Source of the DNA: Bacteroidota bacterium
GTDB taxonomy: Bacteria; Bacteroidota; Bacteroidia; Bacteroidales; FEN-979
DNA: 64,000 nt
Assembly: GCA_026391735.1 (NCBI GenBank)
Contig: JAPLDL010000022.1
Location: forward strand, 262,825 to 326,824
Direction of reading: 5' to 3'
Shown piece by piece: positions 51,300 to 63,062 of the stretch (position 1 is its first letter; every line of letters starts with the position of its first letter). The position numbers and the translations under genes are program-made. The notes under the pieces were generated by a model. It ran no database searches. It was not told where the DNA came from and worked only from the letters and a program-made list of their open reading frames with translations.

Positions 51300-51352
51300 G
51301 ACGTTTCGGTTTTAAATGTTAATATTTATGAATGCAAATATAAATATATTTG

Positions 51353-51376
51353 GTGATAATTAAGCGATTTAAAAAT
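51353..51376 (-). promoter_or_regulatory. Conserved upstream motif, copy 1 (minus strand ATTTTTAAATCGCTTAATTATCAC)
   Basis: Identical at 23 of 24 nt to 60111-60134. It lies 54-77 nt upstream of the DUF2892-OsmC operon start. A TATATTTG -7-like box lies at 51335-51342 on the minus strand. Confidence 0.5.
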
Positions 51377-53605: not shown

Positions 53606-56452
53606 TTGATGGAAATATATTTATTTATGTATATTTACATTCTAAAGTCCCAAAATTGTCAGGTATCAGTTTTCTTAAAGATGGTTCCAGGCAAACTTAA
53701 AGAAACCAGCACGAAAAGCGAACTTATCGCTGCACTCCGGGAGGAGGAGAATGCACATATGCTGGCCCTGCAAAAGTTAAATGAAAGCGAGCAAAGGTTC
53801 TTGTCGATTTTTAAGAATACCGATATCGGATATTTTTTTATTGATAAGGAAGGGATAATCAGGGAAGTCAATCCAACCTGGATCAGGCTTTACAAGTATG
53901 ATTCAGCAGATGAGATCATAGGGCATCACTTTGCGGAAATCCAGAAGCTCGACGACATTGAATTAGCCAGTCAGGTTGTTGCCGGCATTATGCAGGGCGA
54001 TCATCAATATATGAGCGGTGAGTTCAGCAGGCGCTGTATGGATAACAGCATCGGGTATCATTCCTTTTCAGCCCGTCCGGTAAATCGTGGTCAAGAAGTC
54101 ATAGGTATAGAAGGGTTTATCGTAGATACGACCCTGACAAGGCTGCATGAGGAAAATTTCAAAATCCTTTTCAACACCATGTCTCAAGGTGTGGTTTTTC
54201 AGGATGCGGAAGGAAAGATCATTACGGCGAACCCTGCGGCCCAGGAGCTGCTTGGGTTAAGCCTTGATCAGATGCAGGGCCGGTCATCGGCCGACCCAAG
54301 ATGGAGATCCATTCATGAAGATGGCAGTGCATACCCGGGTTCAGAGCATCCTGCCATGATTGCCTTGCAGAGCGGAAAAAAAATCACGAATGTTATCATG
54401 GGAGTATATAATCCGCAGTTACAGACCCATAAATGGCTGCTGATTAACGCAATCCCTCAATTCAGAAGTGAAGAAAATACAGCCAACGGAGTATTTACAA
54501 CTTTTACTGATTTTACAGAAGTAAAATTAGCTGATGAGTCTCTGAGAACCAGCGAAAATAAGCTGATGAACTTATACTCCAATATGAGCGAAGGGGTTGG
54601 ATTACATAAGCTTATATACGGGGAGCAAGGCGAAGCGCTGAATTACAGGATTGAAGGAATCAATCCAAGTTTTGAAAAAATTCTGGGTTTAAAGGAAGAG
54701 GATATTCTCAATAAACTTGCGACAGAGGTATATGGTGTACCTGATCCTCCTTTCCTGATGGAGTATATCGAGGTGGTGAAATCGGGAAAACCAGCTTCTT
54801 TTGAAGTTTATTTTCCCCCTATGGAGAAGCATTTCTCTATTTCTGTGTCGCCATGGGACAACGGTGGATTTGCCACAATTTTTACCGATATCACAGCCAG
54901 AAAGCAGATCGAGTTGAAATTACTGGAGAGCGATACTAAGTTCAGGTCTCTGGCCGAAAATTCTCCTTATGCGATCCTCATCTACCAGAATGACCTTTGG
55001 ATTTATAGTAATCCTGCCGGTGAAAAGATCAGCGGATTTACAGCGGAAGAAATATACAGTCAGAAATTCTGGGAGATCGTGGCACCTGAATACATGGAAA
55101 CTGTAAGGAATATTGGGAGAAGAAGACAGACAGGTGAAAAAGTTACTTCATCCTATGAATTCAGGATCATCACTAAAACCGGTAAGTCAAAGTGGGTATT
55201 TCTTACAGGCAATACAATCACTTTCTCCGGAAGACCTGCAGGTATAATTTCCATTGTGGATATCACTGATCGCAAGCAGATGGAAATTGACCTGAAAATT
55301 GCAGTTGAAAGGGCCCAGGAGTCGGATCGTCTGAAATCAACCTTCCTTGCCAATATGAGCCACGAGATCAGGACCCCCATGAATGCTATCCTGGGATTTT
55401 CTGAATTGATTGGCCAGCCCGATACAAACCATGAGGAACTGGAGAGGTTTGGGGGAATTATAAGGAATGCAGGTAAGCGATTGTTACATATTATTGATGA
55501 CATCATTGACCTTTCGAAACTCGAAGCAAAACAGATAGAAATTGTTAGCGGGCCATGTGATGTATACCATATGCTCACAGCGACTGTGGACTCTTTCAGG
55601 AACATGGATATCCTGAAGAGAAAGAAAGAACTCCAGCTTGTTACTGATATTAAGGATTGCCTCCCTGGTGAGGAAATCACCACCGACCCGATAAGACTTC
55701 AACAGGTGGTAGATAACCTGATCACCAATGCAATTAAATATACGGCTCAGGGAACCATTACTGTTGGGGTTAACAAGATCAGCCTGAGAGGGAAGGGTTT
55801 TCTTGAGTTTTTTGTCAGAGATACAGGGAAAGGCATTCCGGAGGAAAAGCTTCCTATTATTTTTGAGAGGTTCCGACAGGTAGAAGAAAATGAGTATCAC
55901 GAGGGAGCCGGACTGGGGCTGAGCATCTGCAAGTCTTTTATTGAACTGCTGGGTGGCGAAATCCAGGTAGAGTCTGAGGAAGGAAAAGGTAGCCGGTTCA
56001 GTTTTATAATACCTGTTGGTGCGGTTAAAAGCCATGAGCCTTCTGCAGGTTCTGAGACCGGGAAAAAATCATTTGATCTCAGCGGGAGAACAATCATTAT
56101 TGCCGAAGATGAGGATGATTCTTTTAGTTACCTGGAGCAGTTACTGAAAGAAACCAAGGCAAAACTGCTTCGTTCAGTTAATGGCAGGCACCTGATGGAG
56201 ATGTTGGATAAGAATCTGCCTGACTTGCTGATTTTGGATATCAATATGCCCGGGAAGACCGGGTATGAATGTTTAAAGGAAATCCGTGAAAATGGATATC
56301 CCCTGAAAGTCATTGTACAGACTGCTTATGCCATGGCCGATGAAAGGAAGCGTTGTTTTGAAGCAGGTTGCGACAGCTACCTGGCCAAGCCCTTCAATAA
56401 AAAAGCATTATTTGACAGCCTTGCTGAAATATTTAATAATATAGATTTATGA
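53606..56452 (+). CDS. PAS-rich hybrid sensor histidine kinase with a C-terminal receiver
   Basis: Several PAS/PAC-like repeats, H-box SHEIRTPMNAI, G boxes (DTGKGI, GAGLGL) and a receiver (LLILDINMPGKTG). The probable start is ATG 53681 (MVPGKL). Confidence 0.88.
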   Translation: MMEIYLFMYIYILKSQNCQVSVFLKMVPGKLKETSTKSELIAALREEENAHMLALQKLNESEQRFLSIFKNTDIGYFFIDKEGIIREVNPTWIRLYKYDSADEIIGHHFAEIQKLDDIELASQVVAGIMQGDHQYMSGEFSRRCMDNSIGYHSFSARPVNRGQEVIGIEGFIVDTTLTRLHEENFKILFNTMSQGVVFQDAEGKIITANPAAQELLGLSLDQMQGRSSADPRWRSIHEDGSAYPGSEHPAMIALQSGKKITNVIMGVYNPQLQTHKWLLINAIPQFRSEENTANGVFTTFTDFTEVKLADESLRTSENKLMNLYSNMSEGVGLHKLIYGEQGEALNYRIEGINPSFEKILGLKEEDILNKLATEVYGVPDPPFLMEYIEVVKSGKPASFEVYFPPMEKHFSISVSPWDNGGFATIFTDITARKQIELKLLESDTKFRSLAENSPYAILIYQNDLWIYSNPAGEKISGFTAEEIYSQKFWEIVAPEYMETVRNIGRRRQTGEKVTSSYEFRIITKTGKSKWVFLTGNTITFSGRPAGIISIVDITDRKQMEIDLKIAVERAQESDRLKSTFLANMSHEIRTPMNAILGFSELIGQPDTNHEELERFGGIIRNAGKRLLHIIDDIIDLSKLEAKQIEIVSGPCDVYHMLTATVDSFRNMDILKRKKELQLVTDIKDCLPGEEITTDPIRLQQVVDNLITNAIKYTAQGTITVGVNKISLRGKGFLEFFVRDTGKGIPEEKLPIIFERFRQVEENEYHEGAGLGLSICKSFIELLGGEIQVESEEGKGSRFSFIIPVGAVKSHEPSAGSETGKKSFDLSGRTIIIAEDEDDSFSYLEQLLKETKAKLLRSVNGRHLMEMLDKNLPDLLILDINMPGKTGYECLKEIRENGYPLKVIVQTAYAMADERKRCFEAGCDSYLAKPFNKKALFDSLAEIFNNIDL

Positions 56453-57987
56453 ATCATATTGATTTTTCTCTGGTTGACTGGTCAAGAGCCCAGTTTGCTC
56501 TGACTGCTTGTTATCACTGGATTTTTGTTCCCCTTACTCTCGGGTTATCATTCATTATCGCCTTTATGGAGACGATTTATGTAAAGACCGGGGATGAAGA
56601 ATGGAAGCGTCTGACAAAATTCTGGATGACCCTATTCGGGATTAATTTTGCGATTGGAATTGCAACTGGTTTGATACTTGAATTTGAATTCGGAACAAAC
56701 TGGTCGAACTATTCCTGGTTTGTAGGGGATATTTTTGGCGCCCCTTTGGCCATAGAAGGCATCATGGCTTTTTTCATGGAAACCACATTCATTGCCGTGA
56801 TGTTTTTCGGCTGGAACAAGGTGGGCAAGAAATTTCATCTGCTCTCTACCTGGCTTGTTGCCATTGGCAGCAACCTGAGCGCCTTATGGATTCTTGTTGC
56901 CAACGGCTGGATGCAGTTACCCGAAGGTATGAAATTCAACCCTGATACGGCAAGGAATGAGATGGTGGACTTCTGGAAAGTGCTTTTCTCACCTGTTGCC
57001 ATCAATAAATTCCTTCACACGGTATCTGCGGGGTATGTTCTTGCTGCAATTTTTGTCATTGGCGTCAGTTCCTGGTTCCTGCTGAAAAATCGCGATGTTC
57101 TTTATGCCAAGCGAAGCATTATTGTGGCTGCGTGCTTCGGTTTGCTGGCCTCGGTTTTTGTTATGTTCACAGGGGACGGATCGGCACGAGCCGTTGCCCA
57201 TCACCAGCCGATGAAATTCGCAGCGATGGAAAATTTATATATGGGTCAGCAGAATGCTCCTTTGGCGGCTTTTGGCATCCTTAAAGCAGATCCAACTGCA
57301 CCCGGCCATAAAAAAATGGATTTCAAATACCTGGTTGAGATCCCGGATGTATTGTCGTACATGGCTTTCCTTAATCCGAATGCTTATGTGCCTGGCATTT
57401 ATGACCTTGTTCACGGGAACCCGGCTCATGGAATACCCTCTTATAATGAACGGATCGCCAAAGGTGAGACAGCTATCAATTCGCTGGCTGCCTATAAAAG
57501 GGCCAGGCTTGCCGGGAATGACAGCCTCGCAAAAGTTTCATTAGCCACCTTCGAAGCAAACTACAATAATTTCGGATATGGATATTATGCAAACCGGGAT
57601 GTACACGAACTAATCCCGAGCATCCCCACCAGTTTTTATTCATTCCGCATTATGGTCTTCCTTGGACTGCATTTTTTTGCGCTGTTGCTTGTCGTTTTGA
57701 TTTTAACGGTCCGTAACAGAATTGAATCCAAGAAAATAATCCTGTATACCGCCTTATGGACAATCCCGTTAGCTTATATTGCTTCCATGCTCGGCTGGAT
57801 TGTAGCCGAGGTAGGACGTCAGCCCTGGGTCATACAGGATATTCTGCCTACCATTGCAGCCGTATCGCAGCTGAAAGCTTCTTCGGTCCAGCTGACTTTC
57901 TGGCTGTTCGCTGTTTTCTTCACGGCCTTGCTGATTGCCGAGATCGGTATTATGCTGAAACAGATTAAAAAGGGTTTCACAGTTTAA
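56449..57987 (+). CDS. cydA: Cytochrome bd ubiquinol oxidase subunit I
   Basis: The N-terminus LVDWSRAQFALTACYHWIFVPLTLGL, W..NGWMQ.P.G and a long Q-loop. ATGA overlap with the kinase gene. Confidence 0.92.
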   Translation: MNHIDFSLVDWSRAQFALTACYHWIFVPLTLGLSFIIAFMETIYVKTGDEEWKRLTKFWMTLFGINFAIGIATGLILEFEFGTNWSNYSWFVGDIFGAPLAIEGIMAFFMETTFIAVMFFGWNKVGKKFHLLSTWLVAIGSNLSALWILVANGWMQLPEGMKFNPDTARNEMVDFWKVLFSPVAINKFLHTVSAGYVLAAIFVIGVSSWFLLKNRDVLYAKRSIIVAACFGLLASVFVMFTGDGSARAVAHHQPMKFAAMENLYMGQQNAPLAAFGILKADPTAPGHKKMDFKYLVEIPDVLSYMAFLNPNAYVPGIYDLVHGNPAHGIPSYNERIAKGETAINSLAAYKRARLAGNDSLAKVSLATFEANYNNFGYGYYANRDVHELIPSIPTSFYSFRIMVFLGLHFFALLLVVLILTVRNRIESKKIILYTALWTIPLAYIASMLGWIVAEVGRQPWVIQDILPTIAAVSQLKASSVQLTFWLFAVFFTALLIAEIGIMLKQIKKGFTV

Positions 57988-57994
57988 TTTTTTT

Positions 57995-59191
57995 ATGTCA
58001 TTACAAATCCAAGATACCATGTTCGAATCATTATCCCTGTTAAGCCTGCAACAATACTGGTGGCTGATCGTATCCCTTCTGGGCGCCTTGCTGGTATTCC
58101 TTATGTTCGTCCAGGGAGGACAAACACTGATCTATTCGCTCGGAAAATCCGAAGAAGAGCGAAGTCTTCTGGTCAATCTACTCGGCCGGAAATGGGAGCT
58201 TACCTTCACCACACTGGTTACCTTTGGAGGCGCTTTCTTTGCATCCTTCCCCTTATTCTATTCAACCAGTTTTGGAGGAGCCTATTGGGTTTGGATGGCC
58301 ATCCTCATTGCGTTCGTCATCCAGGCGGTTTCCTATGAATACCGCAAAAAGCCCGGAAATTTCCTGGGCCAGAAAACCTTTGAGATATTTCTAGTGCTGA
58401 ACGGGCTTTTAGGAACCCTTCTGTTGGGAACTGCAGTAGCTACTTTCTTCACGGGCTCAGCATTTTCTGTAAATAAGATGAACCTCCTGGACCTTACTTC
58501 AGGAAACATGCCGGTAATTTCCCAATGGAAAGGCCCTGCTCACGGACTTGAAGCCGCGTTGAATCCGGTTAACCTCAGTTTGGGACTTGCTGTCTTCTTT
58601 CTTTCCCGGGTGCTTGCCATCCTTTACTTCATGAACCGGATGGGCCAGGCAGCAATCATGGAACGCTTGAAAAAGCAACTCCTTCATAATGCCATTCCGT
58701 TTCTGGTGTTTTTTCTTGTCTTCGCCGGATGGCTGTTATTGTCAAGTGGTTTCGCAGTGGACCCAAAAACAGGGGTCGTAGGCATGGAACCTTATAAATA
58801 CCTGCATAATCTTATAGCACTGCCCGTCGTTGCAGTTCTTTTTCTGCTTGGAGTCGTTGCAGTTTTACTGGGGATCATCCGTGTGACTTTCTGTTTCGAA
58901 AAATGCCATACCAGGGGGATCTGGGTAAGCGGTATCGGAACTGTCCTCACGGTATGGGCGCTCTTTTTGCTTGCAGGGTTCAACCATACAGCATATTATC
59001 CGTCTACATGGGATCTTCAAAGCTCCCTTACTATTGAGAACAGTTCCTCAAGTCATTACACACTTACAGCTATGAGCTATGTCTCGTTACTGGTGCCTTT
59101 TGTGCTGGCTTATATCTGGTATGTTTGGAGAGCAATGGATAATAAAAAGATCACAACTGAGGAATTGCAATCCGAATCACATGTTTATTAA
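57995..59191 (+). CDS. cydB: Cytochrome bd ubiquinol oxidase subunit II
   Basis: 398-aa polytopic protein immediately after cydA, with CydB-like features (WW.IVSLLGALLVFLMFV.GGQ). Confidence 0.88.
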   Translation: MSLQIQDTMFESLSLLSLQQYWWLIVSLLGALLVFLMFVQGGQTLIYSLGKSEEERSLLVNLLGRKWELTFTTLVTFGGAFFASFPLFYSTSFGGAYWVWMAILIAFVIQAVSYEYRKKPGNFLGQKTFEIFLVLNGLLGTLLLGTAVATFFTGSAFSVNKMNLLDLTSGNMPVISQWKGPAHGLEAALNPVNLSLGLAVFFLSRVLAILYFMNRMGQAAIMERLKKQLLHNAIPFLVFFLVFAGWLLLSSGFAVDPKTGVVGMEPYKYLHNLIALPVVAVLFLLGVVAVLLGIIRVTFCFEKCHTRGIWVSGIGTVLTVWALFLLAGFNHTAYYPSTWDLQSSLTIENSSSSHYTLTAMSYVSLLVPFVLAYIWYVWRAMDNKKITTEELQSESHVY

Positions 59192-59211: not shown

Positions 59212-59634
59212 CTATTGCAGTGCTTTCTCGATCTCCACTTTCAATCCCGATCTGAAGCGGTCGGGATTGCTTTGTCCATAATCGAAGGCAAATTTCGTAA
59301 GGTCATTTTTGGTTTCCTTGCCATTCCTTAGTTTCACCACGTATAATGCCTGAGCATTGATTTCAAACCGGGCTACGGTTTTAGCCAGGGATTTGTCATC
59401 GGTATTGATGACCTGGAATTTTATTTTGCCTTCCTTCACTTCTTTGGCAAAACTACCTTGTATGAGTTTGATTAGGTTTTGTTCTATGGACTGGTCTATT
59501 GGGCAGCGTTCTGACGGGTGGAAGTAATATACTTCGGCCAGAGGTTTCCCTTCAAGGGATTTGACCTGTGCAAATCCGTCGAAAAACCCAGTGAATAACA
59601 GAAAAAATGATACGAGCAGCGATGTTTTTATCAT
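59212..59634 (-). CDS. Secreted small protein of unknown function (possibly the ArsF-named family seen next to thioredoxins)
   Basis: Signal peptide and a single Cys in HPSERCPIDQ. It lies 5 nt downstream of the thioredoxin gene. The family name is from memory and unverified. Confidence 0.4.
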   Translation of the reverse strand: MIKTSLLVSFFLLFTGFFDGFAQVKSLEGKPLAEVYYFHPSERCPIDQSIEQNLIKLIQGSFAKEVKEGKIKFQVINTDDKSLAKTVARFEINAQALYVVKLRNGKETKNDLTKFAFDYGQSNPDRFRSGLKVEIEKALQ

Positions 59635-59639
59635 AAAGC

Positions 59640-60065
59640 TTATAAATTGTACCTGCGGTCAAATTCTTTTAATAAATAGTCTCTGGATTTAACCCCGACT
59701 ATCCGTTTAACTTCTTTCCCATTCTGGAATAAGATCATGGTTGGGATGCTTCTGATGCCAAATTTAGCGGCTGTAGCTTTTTGTTCATCCACATTGACTT
59801 TAGCGATGGTCACTTTATCGCCGGTTTCTTCGGCTACTTCATTAAGAACCGGGATCATCATTTTGCAGGGCATGCACCAGGAAGCCCAGAAATCGACCAG
59901 GACAAGTCCCGTTTTGATTTTATTCTGGAAATTCTGGTCAGTCAACTCCTTAACTTTTTCGCTGGATTTCACATCCTTCAGGCTTTTCATTTTTTGCCTG
60001 GCATTAAAGATAAGAATTCCTATAAGAACCACCAGGGCTGCAAGTATACTTATCGTAATCCACAT
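59640..60065 (-). CDS. Membrane-anchored thioredoxin
   Basis: N-terminal TM helix, then the thioredoxin fold with active site WASWCMPCK (WCxPC) and cis-Pro context RSIPTMILF. Confidence 0.88.
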   Translation of the reverse strand: MWITISILAALVVLIGILIFNARQKMKSLKDVKSSEKVKELTDQNFQNKIKTGLVLVDFWASWCMPCKMMIPVLNEVAEETGDKVTIAKVNVDEQKATAAKFGIRSIPTMILFQNGKEVKRIVGVKSRDYLLKEFDRRYNL

Positions 60066-60084: not shown

Positions 60085-60092
60085 CAAAGGTA
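60085..60092 (-). promoter_or_regulatory. Possible -7 box (TACCTTTG) for the thioredoxin operon
   Basis: The minus strand reads TACCTTTG (TAnnTTTG) 20 nt upstream of the ATG. Confidence 0.3.
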
Positions 60093-60110
60093 AGAATAAA
60101 AATTCAATTA

Positions 60111-60134
60111 GTGATAATTAGGCGATTTAAAAAT
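60111..60134 (-). promoter_or_regulatory. Conserved upstream motif, copy 2 (minus strand ATTTTTAAATCGCCTAATTATCAC)
   Basis: Identical at 23 of 24 nt to 51353-51376. It lies 46-69 nt upstream of the thioredoxin start. Confidence 0.5.
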
Positions 60135-60179: not shown

Positions 60180-61676
60180 TTAATGTGAAACAATAATTTT
60201 ACGTACATCAGTTATCCCGTCAACATTCAGGTAACACAGATAAGTTCCGGGAGCGACTCTTGAGGTATAGAACTCGGCTTTATACTCTCCAGCCTGCAAA
60301 ATATTATTTACAAGGGTTGTTATGGTTTTCCCGTTCATATCAAGAATATCGATTTTAACTTTACCTGATGTGCTAATATGGTATGGGATATTGGTCATGA
60401 ATGATGCTGGGTTCGGATAATTCACCAGTAGTTTGTTGTCGGATGGGATATTCCCATTCACCGGTTTAATTCCCAGTGGGTTATAGCCGTGCGGACCGGG
60501 TGCGGCAGGAGTATAGCCATGACAAACGGAGCATGTTTTAAGGGTACCGGCGAAACCCTGGAGGGCTATGTTCTGAACATTATCTTCGGGCCTTTCGGAT
60601 GGCAAAATCGCATGGGGCGAACTATGGCAGCTGCTGCAGAACAATCCGCCATGGCCTTTCGACTGGCGGAACAGTTTGCCCGGTTCTTCTGCATAATTTG
60701 ATCCATGGCAGGAAACCGCTCCGCAGGAAGGTTCCTGAAGCCAGGGATTTCTCCCACTTGCGATGGTATTACCTACATTGGCAACGCTTCCGTGGCAATT
60801 CTGGCATTTGCTGACGGTACCTCCGGCTGCCCCTGCAGAATGCATTGTATCGCGCCAGCATTGTGTGTTGGGCCCTGGATGACACTTATAACAGTCTGCG
60901 ATCGTTCCGGTATTGATAAAGCTTCCATGTTTCTGGTGAATGGCCTGGGAAAAAGGAGGAGTTCCTGCATGGCCTGGTGTGCCCAGTGCATTGTCGGAAT
61001 GGCAGGTAGCGCAAAGGATGGGCTTGTTGGCAATATTGAAACCCGTAACAGATTCATGGGCCTGCAAAATTGCCATCTCGCTGGAATGGCAGCCCGAACT
61101 TACACAACTTATTTCATGAGATATGGGGATGACGCTCTGGGTGGAAGCCAGTTGGGTTCCTGTCGAAGTGTAGGCTTTAATCAGTGTAAGCTGGTAGGGA
61201 GTAGATGTAGTAGGGGTTGCATCAGGAAATGCAGTGATCGGTATCCCCGTGGCATAATGATAATTCATCGTATCGGCATTCAGCATGGTCCCGGTCAGGC
61301 CAAACCCTGCCAGACCCATGTTTGGCGCCAGTGTAACGCCGAAAAGATGCAGGGAATAAGTCCAGAAGTTTGTTTTTCCAACAGAATAGGTATTGCCTGG
61401 TATTTCATAGGTCACATAAATTCCGCTTGAATGAGGCATTATCGTCGGCAGGTTTGAAGCATCTCCTTTCAATATGACGTGAGCTTTCTGATTATTATAC
61501 GGAGGCAGGATACACATATTGGAAAAGTCCAGGTTTGCGCAGTGCATACCCAGGTCGTTCCAGGCAATGACAAGGTACTGATCCGTTTCGGGGTTGGCGG
61601 GTTTCACAGGTCTGAAAGAAACCAGGATCAAAGGAATAACAATTCCGATGATCAGTAATGCGAATAACTTTTTCAT
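60180..61676 (-). CDS. Multihaem c-type cytochrome with a T9SS C-terminal sorting domain
   Basis: Five CxxCH motifs (CATCH, CYKCH, CQNCH, CSSCH, CSVCH) plus two Cx4CH (CVSSGCH, CGAVSCH). There is an N-terminal signal anchor. The last roughly 80 aa (LVNYPNPA...GKVKIDILDMNGKTITTL...GEYKAEF...GTYLCYLNVDG...) match the Por/T9SS CTD pattern. The start is set at MKKLFALL; the track ORF extends to 61703. Confidence 0.8.
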   Translation of the reverse strand: MKKLFALLIIGIVIPLILVSFRPVKPANPETDQYLVIAWNDLGMHCANLDFSNMCILPPYNNQKAHVILKGDASNLPTIMPHSSGIYVTYEIPGNTYSVGKTNFWTYSLHLFGVTLAPNMGLAGFGLTGTMLNADTMNYHYATGIPITAFPDATPTTSTPYQLTLIKAYTSTGTQLASTQSVIPISHEISCVSSGCHSSEMAILQAHESVTGFNIANKPILCATCHSDNALGTPGHAGTPPFSQAIHQKHGSFINTGTIADCYKCHPGPNTQCWRDTMHSAGAAGGTVSKCQNCHGSVANVGNTIASGRNPWLQEPSCGAVSCHGSNYAEEPGKLFRQSKGHGGLFCSSCHSSPHAILPSERPEDNVQNIALQGFAGTLKTCSVCHGYTPAAPGPHGYNPLGIKPVNGNIPSDNKLLVNYPNPASFMTNIPYHISTSGKVKIDILDMNGKTITTLVNNILQAGEYKAEFYTSRVAPGTYLCYLNVDGITDVRKIIVSH

Positions 61677-61699
61677 GTCATGGTGTTTTATGAAATATC

Positions 61700-62965
61700 T
61701 CACTGTTTCCCGAATTTCCCGAGCAAATCCTTTACTGCATCTTTATGCACAAGGAAATCCATCATCTTCAATTTAAGGTAATCTGCGCGGAAGAAATAAT
61801 AACCAAACTCTGGGGCTGCCTCATCATGATTCCTTGAACCTGATCCCGAGTCCTTGATCAGATACCAGCCGGTCCCGTCTTTTTCGTAAAATCCAACCAG
61901 GTGCATCCCGTGGTCATCGGTGGTTGTTCCGTTTGAAAACCTGAACTGACGTGCATTATCATCGATATCTTCTGAAGGGATATCGAAGGTGGGAATAATG
62001 GCCACCTGCGCCTCACGGCTGAATCCTGCTTCGGAGACGTCGCCTCCGATCACCATGGTGTAATGATTTTTAATGGCATTTTTAAGGGCATTCATGAAAT
62101 CTTCCAGGGGCACGTTATAATAATCCCTGCTATGCCACCAGTTATCGGGTACTTCATATTCTACCTTTTCCCAGAAGGGTTTCTGCAGATACGAAAGAAC
62201 ATCGACGTAATCATCCATCTGCAGCTTCAGTACCGACGAAAGGAATTCTTTGGGTGTATAACGTATCCCTTTCCATTCAATGGATTCGGGAGGAATGCCC
62301 ATGTAATGGTTCATAATGCTTTTAACCGTTGATATAACCTGAGCTTCATCCCAGGCGTTGGTATTTTTGACATTATCCATATACTGGCTGAGTTCTTTGA
62401 ACATTTTTGAATGCGAGTAGAACTTACGGCCGGGTTCCATTCCGGAATATGCCTCCCTCGGGACGATGCCGTATTTCTTAAAATCACGGATCACGGCATT
62501 GGCTTCAGAACCTTCCGAAAAAGCAGAATTGCCGCGTTCCGAAACAAAACGCTTGGCCCGTTCCACGTATTCCCAGTATACGGTATACATCTCAGAGAGC
62601 TTGACTTCCTGTTTGGTCAGCCGGTGGACCTCAGATTCGAAAAAAGAGGTCGTTGAAAAACACCAACACGTATTTGTGTTTCCCTGGGATACAGGAGGGA
62701 GGTGCCATTCTTTCTGGTACAGGTTGATTTTGTTAGGCCAGGTCATCCCCGAGAGATCTGCCTGGAATCGTTTTTCTGTTTTAGCGGGCAGAATACTGTC
62801 ATCCACTGCCCGGATATCCTTCATGATGGTATTCTGAAAATAACCAGGTTTCCCTTCCTTCATAATCGCCGGGGTCCTGGGCTGCTGGGCATATGATGCA
62901 GCTGCGATTATAAAAGTTAACGTTGCAAGAATGACTTTTTTCATGAGTAAGAATTTTTTTTGCAA
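61700..62965 (-). CDS. C1-family cysteine peptidase (aminopeptidase C / bleomycin-hydrolase-like)
   Basis: Signal peptide, catalytic Cys context QGNTNTCWCFSTTSFFESE, and a downstream H (DDHGMHLVG) typical of papain-like C1B enzymes. Confidence 0.8.
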   Translation of the reverse strand: MQKKFLLMKKVILATLTFIIAAASYAQQPRTPAIMKEGKPGYFQNTIMKDIRAVDDSILPAKTEKRFQADLSGMTWPNKINLYQKEWHLPPVSQGNTNTCWCFSTTSFFESEVHRLTKQEVKLSEMYTVYWEYVERAKRFVSERGNSAFSEGSEANAVIRDFKKYGIVPREAYSGMEPGRKFYSHSKMFKELSQYMDNVKNTNAWDEAQVISTVKSIMNHYMGIPPESIEWKGIRYTPKEFLSSVLKLQMDDYVDVLSYLQKPFWEKVEYEVPDNWWHSRDYYNVPLEDFMNALKNAIKNHYTMVIGGDVSEAGFSREAQVAIIPTFDIPSEDIDDNARQFRFSNGTTTDDHGMHLVGFYEKDGTGWYLIKDSGSGSRNHDEAAPEFGYYFFRADYLKLKMMDFLVHKDAVKDLLGKFGKQ

Positions 62966-63062
62966 ATTACTGGAAAAATTGGACTAATCCATAGGGTATT
63001 TCCCTTTTGAAGGATCTTATAGATATAAGCACTCAAAAATATTGAATTAAATAACCTCAGCC

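Follow-up and report, generated by a model that had tools for sequence, protein, structure and literature searches.

Most of what is understood about extracellular electron transfer comes from Shewanella and Geobacter, where the surface cytochromes are either lipoproteins exported by the type II secretion system or filaments. Among the former, the MtrC, OmcA, MtrF and UndA proteins of Shewanella are multihaem c-type cytochromes secreted to lie outside the outer membrane. Here we analyze a gene that appears to provide a counterpart in the Bacteroidota. It lies in a 64,000-nucleotide stretch of DNA (hereafter the window) of contig JAPLDL010000022.1 from an uncultured bacterium of the Bacteroidales (Bacteroidota), corresponding to C18:262825-326824 of a 2.81-Mb metagenome-assembled genome (MAG) in 25 contigs that is ~80% complete. 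The encoded protein of ~42 kDa before haem is, almost beyond doubt, a seven-haem cytochrome, and it ends in a type IX secretion system (T9SS) sorting domain. We read this heptahaem protein as an extracellular multihaem cytochrome that is novel in both its core fold and its export route and that would work in the manner of MtrC and OmcA while lying outside that family.

The likeness to the Shewanella proteins lies in a β-rich domain joined to a dense domain of bis-His haems and in a conserved disulfide, both predicted here, and in the proposal that the folded holoprotein is exported by a dedicated secretion system. The architecture is nevertheless different. The seven predicted haems and the two domains of the heptahaem protein contrast with the MtrC family, whose members carry ten or eleven haems and have four domains arranged in a staggered-cross fold. 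Unlike them it has no lipobox, and its gene has no mtrAB-type porin or periplasmic cytochrome genes adjacent to it. It carries a T9SS C-terminal sorting domain (CTD) where MtrC and OmcA depend on type II secretion; by analogy, the T9SS would play here the part that the type II system plays for MtrC and OmcA in Shewanella.

Comparison with other described systems gives a similar mixture of shared and distinct features. Like the T9SS type A cargo proteins (the gingipains, the chitinase ChiA and SprB-type adhesins) the heptahaem protein has a β-sandwich CTD at its C-terminus and, probably, a Sec signal at its N-terminus, but the cargo known so far consists of hydrolases, of adhesins and of proteins that bind haem non-covalently, whereas this is a c-type cytochrome. 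With the Pcc- and Mtr-type conduits and the extracellular cytochromes of Geobacter and the Ignavibacteria it shares a setting of sediment, sludge or anode, and the presence of large multihaem cytochromes and putative outer-membrane barrels in the same genomes, yet its gene sits outside any such cluster. The Geobacter proteins of the TIGR01904 family and the class III c7/c3 cytochromes (PF14522, PF14537) have the same mixed Cx4CH and CxxCH spacing and short distances between haems, but they have no counterpart to the N-terminal domain or to the CTD. Predicted secreted multihaem cytochromes have been described in Bacteroidota MAGs from activated sludge, with no link to the T9SS and no heptahaem family (PMC11495043). 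Multihaem cytochromes and porin-cytochrome clusters have been described in anode Ignavibacteria, with neither secretion signals nor a heptahaem family (PMC7399161). Our literature search found no paper joining the T9SS, multihaem cytochromes and extracellular electron transfer, none in which a c-type cytochrome is T9SS cargo and none describing the heptahaem family. The preliminary description of the locus, made from the sequence alone, was aware of no good characterization of this class of cargo.

The haem domain contains seven haem c motifs within ~210 residues, five of the form CxxCH and two of the form Cx4CH (Table 1). These are the motifs counted in the preliminary description; all are present in the translation, and their coordinates were verified. 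All seven are invariant or nearly so in 205 related cores, down to ~35% identity, and so they have not arisen by chance. In distant relatives the Cx4CH motif 1 is aligned with a plain CxxCH, and motif 5 with CG--xCH, i.e. again CxxCH, which supports haem binding at both of these sites. Covalent loading of the predicted cytochrome with haem is thus expected at seven positions. In addition, seven histidines that are not part of any motif are kept in 199-205 of the 205 cores. Six of these (216, 256, 259, 351, 364 and 405) lie in the haem domain, while H54 lies in the N-terminal domain. On conservation, therefore, there is one candidate distal axial ligand for each haem, suggesting seven low-spin bis-His haems. 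Seven motifs accompanied by seven further conserved histidines point to an electron wire rather than an enzyme.

The two domains of the core appear to be laced together covalently. Cys55, in the motif WNDLGMHC of the N-terminal domain, and Cys282, in HPGPNTQC of the haem domain, are both present in 197 of the 205 cores and both absent from the remaining eight, and a single member of the pair is never found. Since the two cysteines are retained or lost only jointly, they probably form a disulfide that staples the β-sandwich domain to the haem domain. Such a putative disulfide is consistent with folding outside the cytoplasm.

What is the fold of the core? Using an alignment of 104 sequences, drawn from loci of many phyla together with earlier matches, AlphaFold2 (AF2) gave a core model with a predicted local distance difference test score (pLDDT) of 88.9 and a predicted template modelling score (pTM) of 0.87; an earlier run with an alignment of 22 sequences had given an unusable model with a pLDDT of 55. 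In the better model the strands of the N-terminal domain span residues 43-193 with pLDDT >90, and the haem domain is mainly helix and coil. The N-terminal domain matched no Pfam family. A Foldseek search of the core model against the Protein Data Bank (PDB) gave no match at E ≤ 0.001. The first-ranked entry was MtrC of Shewanella baltica (E = 5.8e-3, TM 0.15) and the third was OmcA, neither of them significant, and the other matches were generic β-sandwiches. A profile search against PDB sequences gave NrfA (0.003), flavocytochrome c3 (0.004) and MtrF (0.008), all of them local matches of haem spacing only, and a sequence search against solved structures likewise found matches only at the level of the haem motifs. 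The modelled core fold is thus one without a detectable solved relative. The MtrC/MtrF pentahaem domain model (PF22113) is matched by 20 of 31 relatives at E ≤ 0.01 and by 21 of 71 at E ≤ 0.001, and has no match to the heptahaem protein itself at E ≤ 1. Assignment to the MtrC/OmcA family was considered and rejected, because the Foldseek match is non-significant, PF22113 is unmatched by the protein and the tests of membership spoke against it. The TIGR01904 CxxxxCH/CxxCH model scores 15.2 bits, under its cut-off of 27.

The protein might alternatively be no wire but an enzyme, outside the cell or at its surface, in which the N-terminal domain with its WNDLGMHC and GKTNFW motifs would form a substrate site fed by the haems; a soluble compound could, for example, be the substrate of such a reductase or peroxidase. 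The N-terminal domain is indeed conserved as strongly as the haem domain and belongs to no known family, there are the weak local profile matches to NrfA-type nitrite reductases, and standalone genes are typical of enzymes. Yet in NrfA, the octahaem reductases and HAO the catalytic haem has an unusual or open distal site (CxxCK, or ligation by Lys or Tyr), whereas every motif of the heptahaem protein ends in histidine with no CxxCK, and seven conserved histidines for seven haems leave no obvious open coordination site. Furthermore, the NrfA match is confined to the spacing of haem motifs, and Foldseek found no structural match to any multihaem enzyme in the PDB. We therefore regard an enzymatic function as unlikely.

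The signals for export lie at the two ends of the protein. The longest open reading frame (ORF) of the gene (window 60180-61703, minus strand, 507 aa, on which all residue numbers here are based) begins with a GTG codon at 61703. In an alignment of homologues, however, every one of them has an MKK start aligned with M10, which makes the ATG at 61676 the probable start. From that start the N-terminus reads as a typical n-region followed by a hydrophobic h-region, with no lipobox cysteine and a non-canonical cleavage site, and the same pattern is kept in the homologues. A hydrophobic export segment is present, but a cleavable Sec signal peptide is more likely than the signal anchor suggested in the preliminary description. 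At the other end, residues 429-505 of 507 match PF18962 with 37.6 bits (cut-off 27) and TIGR04183 with 33 bits (cut-off 23), so that the ~80-residue C-terminal segment previously taken for a T9SS CTD scores above the curated cut-offs of both models. It has a pLDDT of 80-93 in the AF2 run with the 22-sequence alignment. Among the closest orthologues its non-synonymous divergence (dN) is 0.13-0.22 while synonymous divergence (dS) is saturated, showing that the tail is under purifying selection.

The genome also provides the machinery to which these signals correspond. It contains two full-length tandem paralogues of the PorU sortase (1291 and 1143 bits, C11:10410-17124), SprA (2610 bits) and GldM (297 bits), together with 85 matches to the CTD; of all the CTD proteins in the genome, the heptahaem protein alone has multiple haem motifs. 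For cytochrome c maturation (Ccm) there is CcmF at C13:82253-84352 (Cytochrom_C_asm PF01578 and CcmF_C PF16327), CcmB at C21:48290-49003 and CcmC at C21:49033-49755. Thus the T9SS core genes and the maturation genes on which the preliminary description had made its reading depend are both found, although maturation is by the Ccm system I and CcsBA was discarded as the route. Judged from the sequence, export of the heptahaem cytochrome by the T9SS is highly probable.

These elements may be assembled into a mechanism. The protein would be exported by Sec, and the Ccm system would attach seven covalent c-type haems in the periplasm. The T9SS would then recognize the type A CTD and move the folded holoprotein over the outer membrane, where the PorU sortase would anchor it to the surface, or it would be released. 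There it would serve as a short electron wire linking the envelope to acceptors or donors outside the cell, for instance minerals of Fe(III) or Mn(IV), or else humics, shuttles or partner cells. We give this mechanism as a whole, from Sec through to extracellular electron exchange, a probability of roughly 0.58. We lean, by a modest degree, towards an electron-transfer role outside the cell. The analysis shows the motifs, the CTD, the presence of both machineries, the conservation across the family and the tails of extracellular type; haem loading, export, surface location and the source of the electrons are what we infer, as is extracellular electron transfer. The outer-surface multihaem cytochrome first proposed is supported by the sequence, and every computational test named in the preliminary description was run without refuting it.

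How general is the heptahaem module? A word-indexed search for homologues gave >4500 matches, of which the best 120 are 54-86% identical and nearly all carry PF18962. Using the core as query (residues 38-425, leaving out the signal and the CTD), an exhaustive HMMER search found 1410 cluster representatives at E ≤ 0.001, with 289 at E ≤ 1e-30. The core module is found at either end of proteins that are 390 to 1400 aa long. A scan of one genome per species placed relatives of the core in at least 588 species genomes. The best 80 of these range over phyla of the Fibrobacterota-Chlorobiota-Bacteroidota (FCB) group and the Chloroflexota. Among them are Bacteroidales, some in bins labelled Prolixibacteraceae, as well as Ignavibacteria, Kapaibacteria, Chlorobiota, Zixibacteria, Calditrichota, Eisenbacteria, Gemmatimonadota, bins labelled Fibrobacter, Chloroflexota/Anaerolineae, Vicinamibacterales and Sumerlaeota. 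The combination of a CTD with multiple CxxCH motifs is thus widespread in the databases. Two orthologues with a T9SS CTD, L009 (JBLNAN010000094.1, 70% identity) and L044 (CAZSHX010000044.1, 48%), come from MAGs labelled Syntrophothermus (Firmicutes) and Hyphomicrobiales, respectively; these labels are probably errors of binning or taxonomy. In the homologue search, any name that a source gives to the relatives is either 'hypothetical protein' or 'T9SS type A sorting domain-containing protein'; the haem part goes unmentioned because its scores fall under the curated cytochrome cut-offs.

The C-terminal tails of the family were examined in 71 full-length species representatives. All 71 match Cytochrome_C7 (PF14522) at E ≤ 0.001, as do all of the set of 31 relatives at E ≤ 0.01. 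By contrast the tails differ: Por_Secre_tail (the T9SS CTD) is present in 30 of the 71, FlgD_ig at the C-terminus in 21 and a dockerin in eight, and CHU_C (the type B CTD) also occurs among the relatives. The attachment of lineage-specific tails of extracellular type to one and the same core is, in our reading, the best indirect argument for a function of the core outside the cell. The members labelled Chloroflexota, Chloroflexia or Anaerolineales (P0168, P0179, P0205, P0155, P0195, L081 and L087) have no CTD. Several members of the Chloroflexota type end in a YLPLVLR-like motif, approximately [VI]YLP[LV][VIL][LI][RK], and this recurring ending may act as a signal for sorting or anchoring that is peculiar to the lineage.

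By what route might electrons reach the protein? A five-gene multihaem cluster elsewhere in the same genome encodes a DUF4405-like membrane protein, an oxidoreductase with 4Fe-4S and FAD, cytochromes with 20 and 30 haems, and a 549-aa protein. The last has a signal peptide and a C-terminal phenylalanine and matches no family; it is a putative outer-membrane barrel. Five relatives (L094-L098), two of them from other families of the order, share this gene set and its arrangement; among them the second cytochrome has 22 to 49 haems and the putative barrel is roughly 545 aa long. The cluster is a candidate trans-envelope electron conduit. Elsewhere in the genome, at C2:15665-18109, is an 815-aa ORF without a CTD, in which eight CxxCH motifs precede a stretch rich in repeats that resemble tetratricopeptide repeats.

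The distribution of the barrel overlaps that of the heptahaem gene to some extent. Among 61 relatives a homologue of the barrel is found in 10 of 13 heptahaem-positive genomes and in 16 of 48 negative ones (p = 0.006). Within the family the corresponding fractions are 9/12 and 14/25. In heptahaem-positive FCB genomes of other lineages it is present in 14 of 24, while it is found in none of six Chloroflexota genomes and in 37 of 400 evenly drawn Bacteroidota genomes. We take this co-occurrence as a lead only, one that fits a shared lifestyle of electron export and is not proof of a shared pathway. That the heptahaem module should be the outermost link of an FCB-specific chain of extracellular electron transfer, with the five-gene cluster as its trans-envelope part, is a tentative idea that we consider doubtful.

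A number of points weigh against the mechanism proposed above. Its weak point is that the heptahaem gene itself says nothing of how electrons pass across the outer membrane. No porin, periplasmic cytochrome or quinol oxidase gene adjoins it in any of 84 loci, and the co-occurrence with the barrel is non-significant within the family (p = 0.23), in counts that ignore phylogeny and lifestyle. The protein scores below the cut-offs of both the closest cytochrome models, with 23.8 bits for Cytochrome_C7 (cut-off 24.8) and 19.2 for c3_2 (PF14537; cut-off 25); the 82%-identical orthologue reaches 25.9 bits. The bis-His ligation is read from conservation, and the T9SS is not known to export a holo-cytochrome. 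The best 80 of the at least 588 species genomes are all metagenome-derived assemblies, 79 of them with titles that label them as MAG or uncultured. Lastly, the gene is present in just one of 400 evenly drawn Bacteroidota genomes, in 3 of 11 species of its genus, in ~12 of 37 of its family and in a single one of 24 from elsewhere in the order, and this patchy occurrence indicates an accessory gene, not a core component of respiration.

A patchy, accessory gene that stands alone might instead belong to the economy of iron or haem, the protein being an assimilatory surface ferric reductase for uptake of Fe(III), or a secreted store of haem or iron. But seven covalent haems would make a costly store or scavenger, no iron-uptake genes are conserved alongside, and the positive genomes are enriched in large clusters of multihaem and barrel genes that are typical of respiratory electron export. 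This explanation is improbable.

A periplasmic electron carrier, with a CTD that is vestigial or used only occasionally, would fit with the loading of haem in the periplasm, with the lack of an outer-membrane partner encoded alongside and with the unproven status of T9SS export for cytochromes. Against this, the CTD is above threshold and under purifying selection across the FCB phyla, and in other lineages it is replaced by FlgD_ig, dockerin or CHU_C, tails that would not be expected on a purely periplasmic protein; a periplasmic role is thus quite improbable. An extracellular filament or matrix like that of OmcS, OmcE or OmcZ, in which some histidines ligate the haems of a neighbouring subunit, is suggested by the size and haem count, which resemble those of nanowire subunits, and by relatives with a tandem double module, but PDB searches reveal no likeness in sequence or structure to those proteins and cargo with a CTD normally ends up anchored or released in monomeric form, making this very improbable indeed. 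The tandem modules themselves are each contained in one polypeptide, P0123 (900 aa) and L036:5899-8640 (914 aa), with 10 CxxCH and four Cx4CH motifs in each. We thus retain the extracellular electron wire as the preferred reading.

Table 1. Features of the heptahaem cytochrome locus and related elements. Positions are those of the window unless a contig is named; CDS, coding sequence.
Feature	Position	Strand	Basis or remarks
Heptahaem cytochrome CDS, probable start ATG (M10 of longest ORF)	60180..61676	-	stop 60180-60182
Probable Sec signal peptide MKKLFALLIIGIVIPLILVS	61617..61676	-	read from sequence; same pattern kept in homologues
N-terminal β-sandwich domain (aa 38-194)	61122..61592	-	conserved WNDLGMHC, LPPYN, GKTNFW; holds H54 and C55
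Cys55, partner of co-varying pair	61539..61541	-	in WNDLGMHC
Haem domain (aa 195-406)	60486..61121	-	motif reading, family alignment
Haem motif 1, CVSSGCH (Cx4CH), aa 200-206	61086..61106	-	
Haem motif 2, CATCH, aa 231-235	60999..61013	-	
Haem motif 3, CYKCH, aa 271-275	60879..60893	-	
Cys282, partner of co-varying pair	60858..60860	-	in HPGPNTQC
Haem motif 4, CQNCH, aa 300-304	60792..60806	-	
Haem motif 5, CGAVSCH (Cx4CH), aa 327-333	60705..60725	-	
Haem motif 6, CSSCH, aa 356-360	60624..60638	-	
Haem motif 7, CSVCH, aa 391-395	60519..60533	-	
Linker between haem domain and CTD (aa 407-428)	60420..60485	-	lowest pLDDT, lowest conservation
T9SS type A C-terminal sorting domain (aa 429-507)	60183..60419	-	PF18962, TIGR04183
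Secreted Peptidase_C1_2 (aminopeptidase C-like), upstream gene	61700..62965	-	46.6 bits; own signal-like N-terminus
Thioredoxin operon control region	60085..60134	-	26-nt motif 60109-60134 and TAnnTTTG box 60085-60092
Five-gene multihaem cluster	C6:26962-34896		same genome, outside window

The gene upstream of the cytochrome encodes a secreted C1 peptidase, to which the cytochrome gene had been described as tightly linked with an overlap of 4 nt. The two genes do adjoin in this genome, but the overlap is seen only with the longest ORF and is likely to be an artefact; starting from the ATG at 61676 there is a gap of 23 nt behind the stop codon of the peptidase gene. A TAnnTTTG box is found ahead of the peptidase at 63034-63041, and none is present in the 224 nt ahead of the cytochrome start, so the pair is probably co-transcribed here. 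The peptidase was nevertheless rejected as a functional partner. A tblastn search found no peptidase adjoining any of 92 loci, among them that of the 82%-identical orthologue with its 6 kb of upstream sequence, and the gene tables of five other homologues list unrelated neighbours. Since no homologue has that neighbour, the link is probably incidental. Indeed a search of 84 loci revealed no conserved neighbour of any kind, the largest cluster of non-self genes being found in 11 loci.

Downstream lies a pair of genes encoding a membrane-tethered thioredoxin (59640-60065, minus strand) and then an ArsF-family protein (59212-59634, minus strand). The former has an N-terminal membrane helix and a WCMPC motif and matches TIGR01068 with 125 bits; the latter matches NF040494 with 86 bits. 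The pair has its own control region, which delimits the transcription unit of the cytochrome, and we treat the two genes as a unit apart. The 26-nt motif ATTTTTAAATCGCCTAATTATCACTA of that region has a second copy on the same strand at 51351-51376, ahead of another minus-strand stress operon; there are two mismatches between the copies, where the chance expectation is 0, and they are likely to be the sites of a shared regulator. The thioredoxin was rejected as a partner in cytochrome maturation, because it has its own TAnnTTTG box and 26-nt motif and synteny of the pair is confined to the four closest relatives. The distribution of charge past its membrane helix, which suggests a cytoplasmic domain, also counts against such a role. 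Farther along, a segment at 53606-59191 (plus strand) encodes a 948-aa multi-PAS hybrid histidine kinase/response regulator, the stop codon of which overlaps the start of cydA (56449-56452), followed by cydB. The sensor kinase thus appears to be translationally coupled to the cytochrome bd oxidase.

If it is true that the T9SS exports holo-cytochromes, this would be a new class of cargo for a system known for hydrolases and adhesins, and the SprA translocon would pass a protein carrying seven haems. Since the core is without a solved relative, determining its structure would break new ground as well. Annotation-based surveys of electroactive potential probably miss the heptahaem family, and yet, under the same condition, it would provide a concrete molecular marker for the exchange of electrons with minerals, humics or other species in uncultured FCB bacteria, which are abundant in sediments, lakes, digesters and activated sludge. 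Should the module prove to be the outermost link of a chain that includes the five-gene cluster, the T9SS would be a previously unrecognized route by which respiratory cytochromes are placed on the cell surface, and respiration with minerals, humics or partner cells would extend to many uncultured members of the Bacteroidales, Ignavibacteria, Kapaibacteria, Zixibacteria, Calditrichota and Eisenbacteria. The large heptahaem family may thus let many bacteria of sediment and sludge pass electrons to their surroundings.

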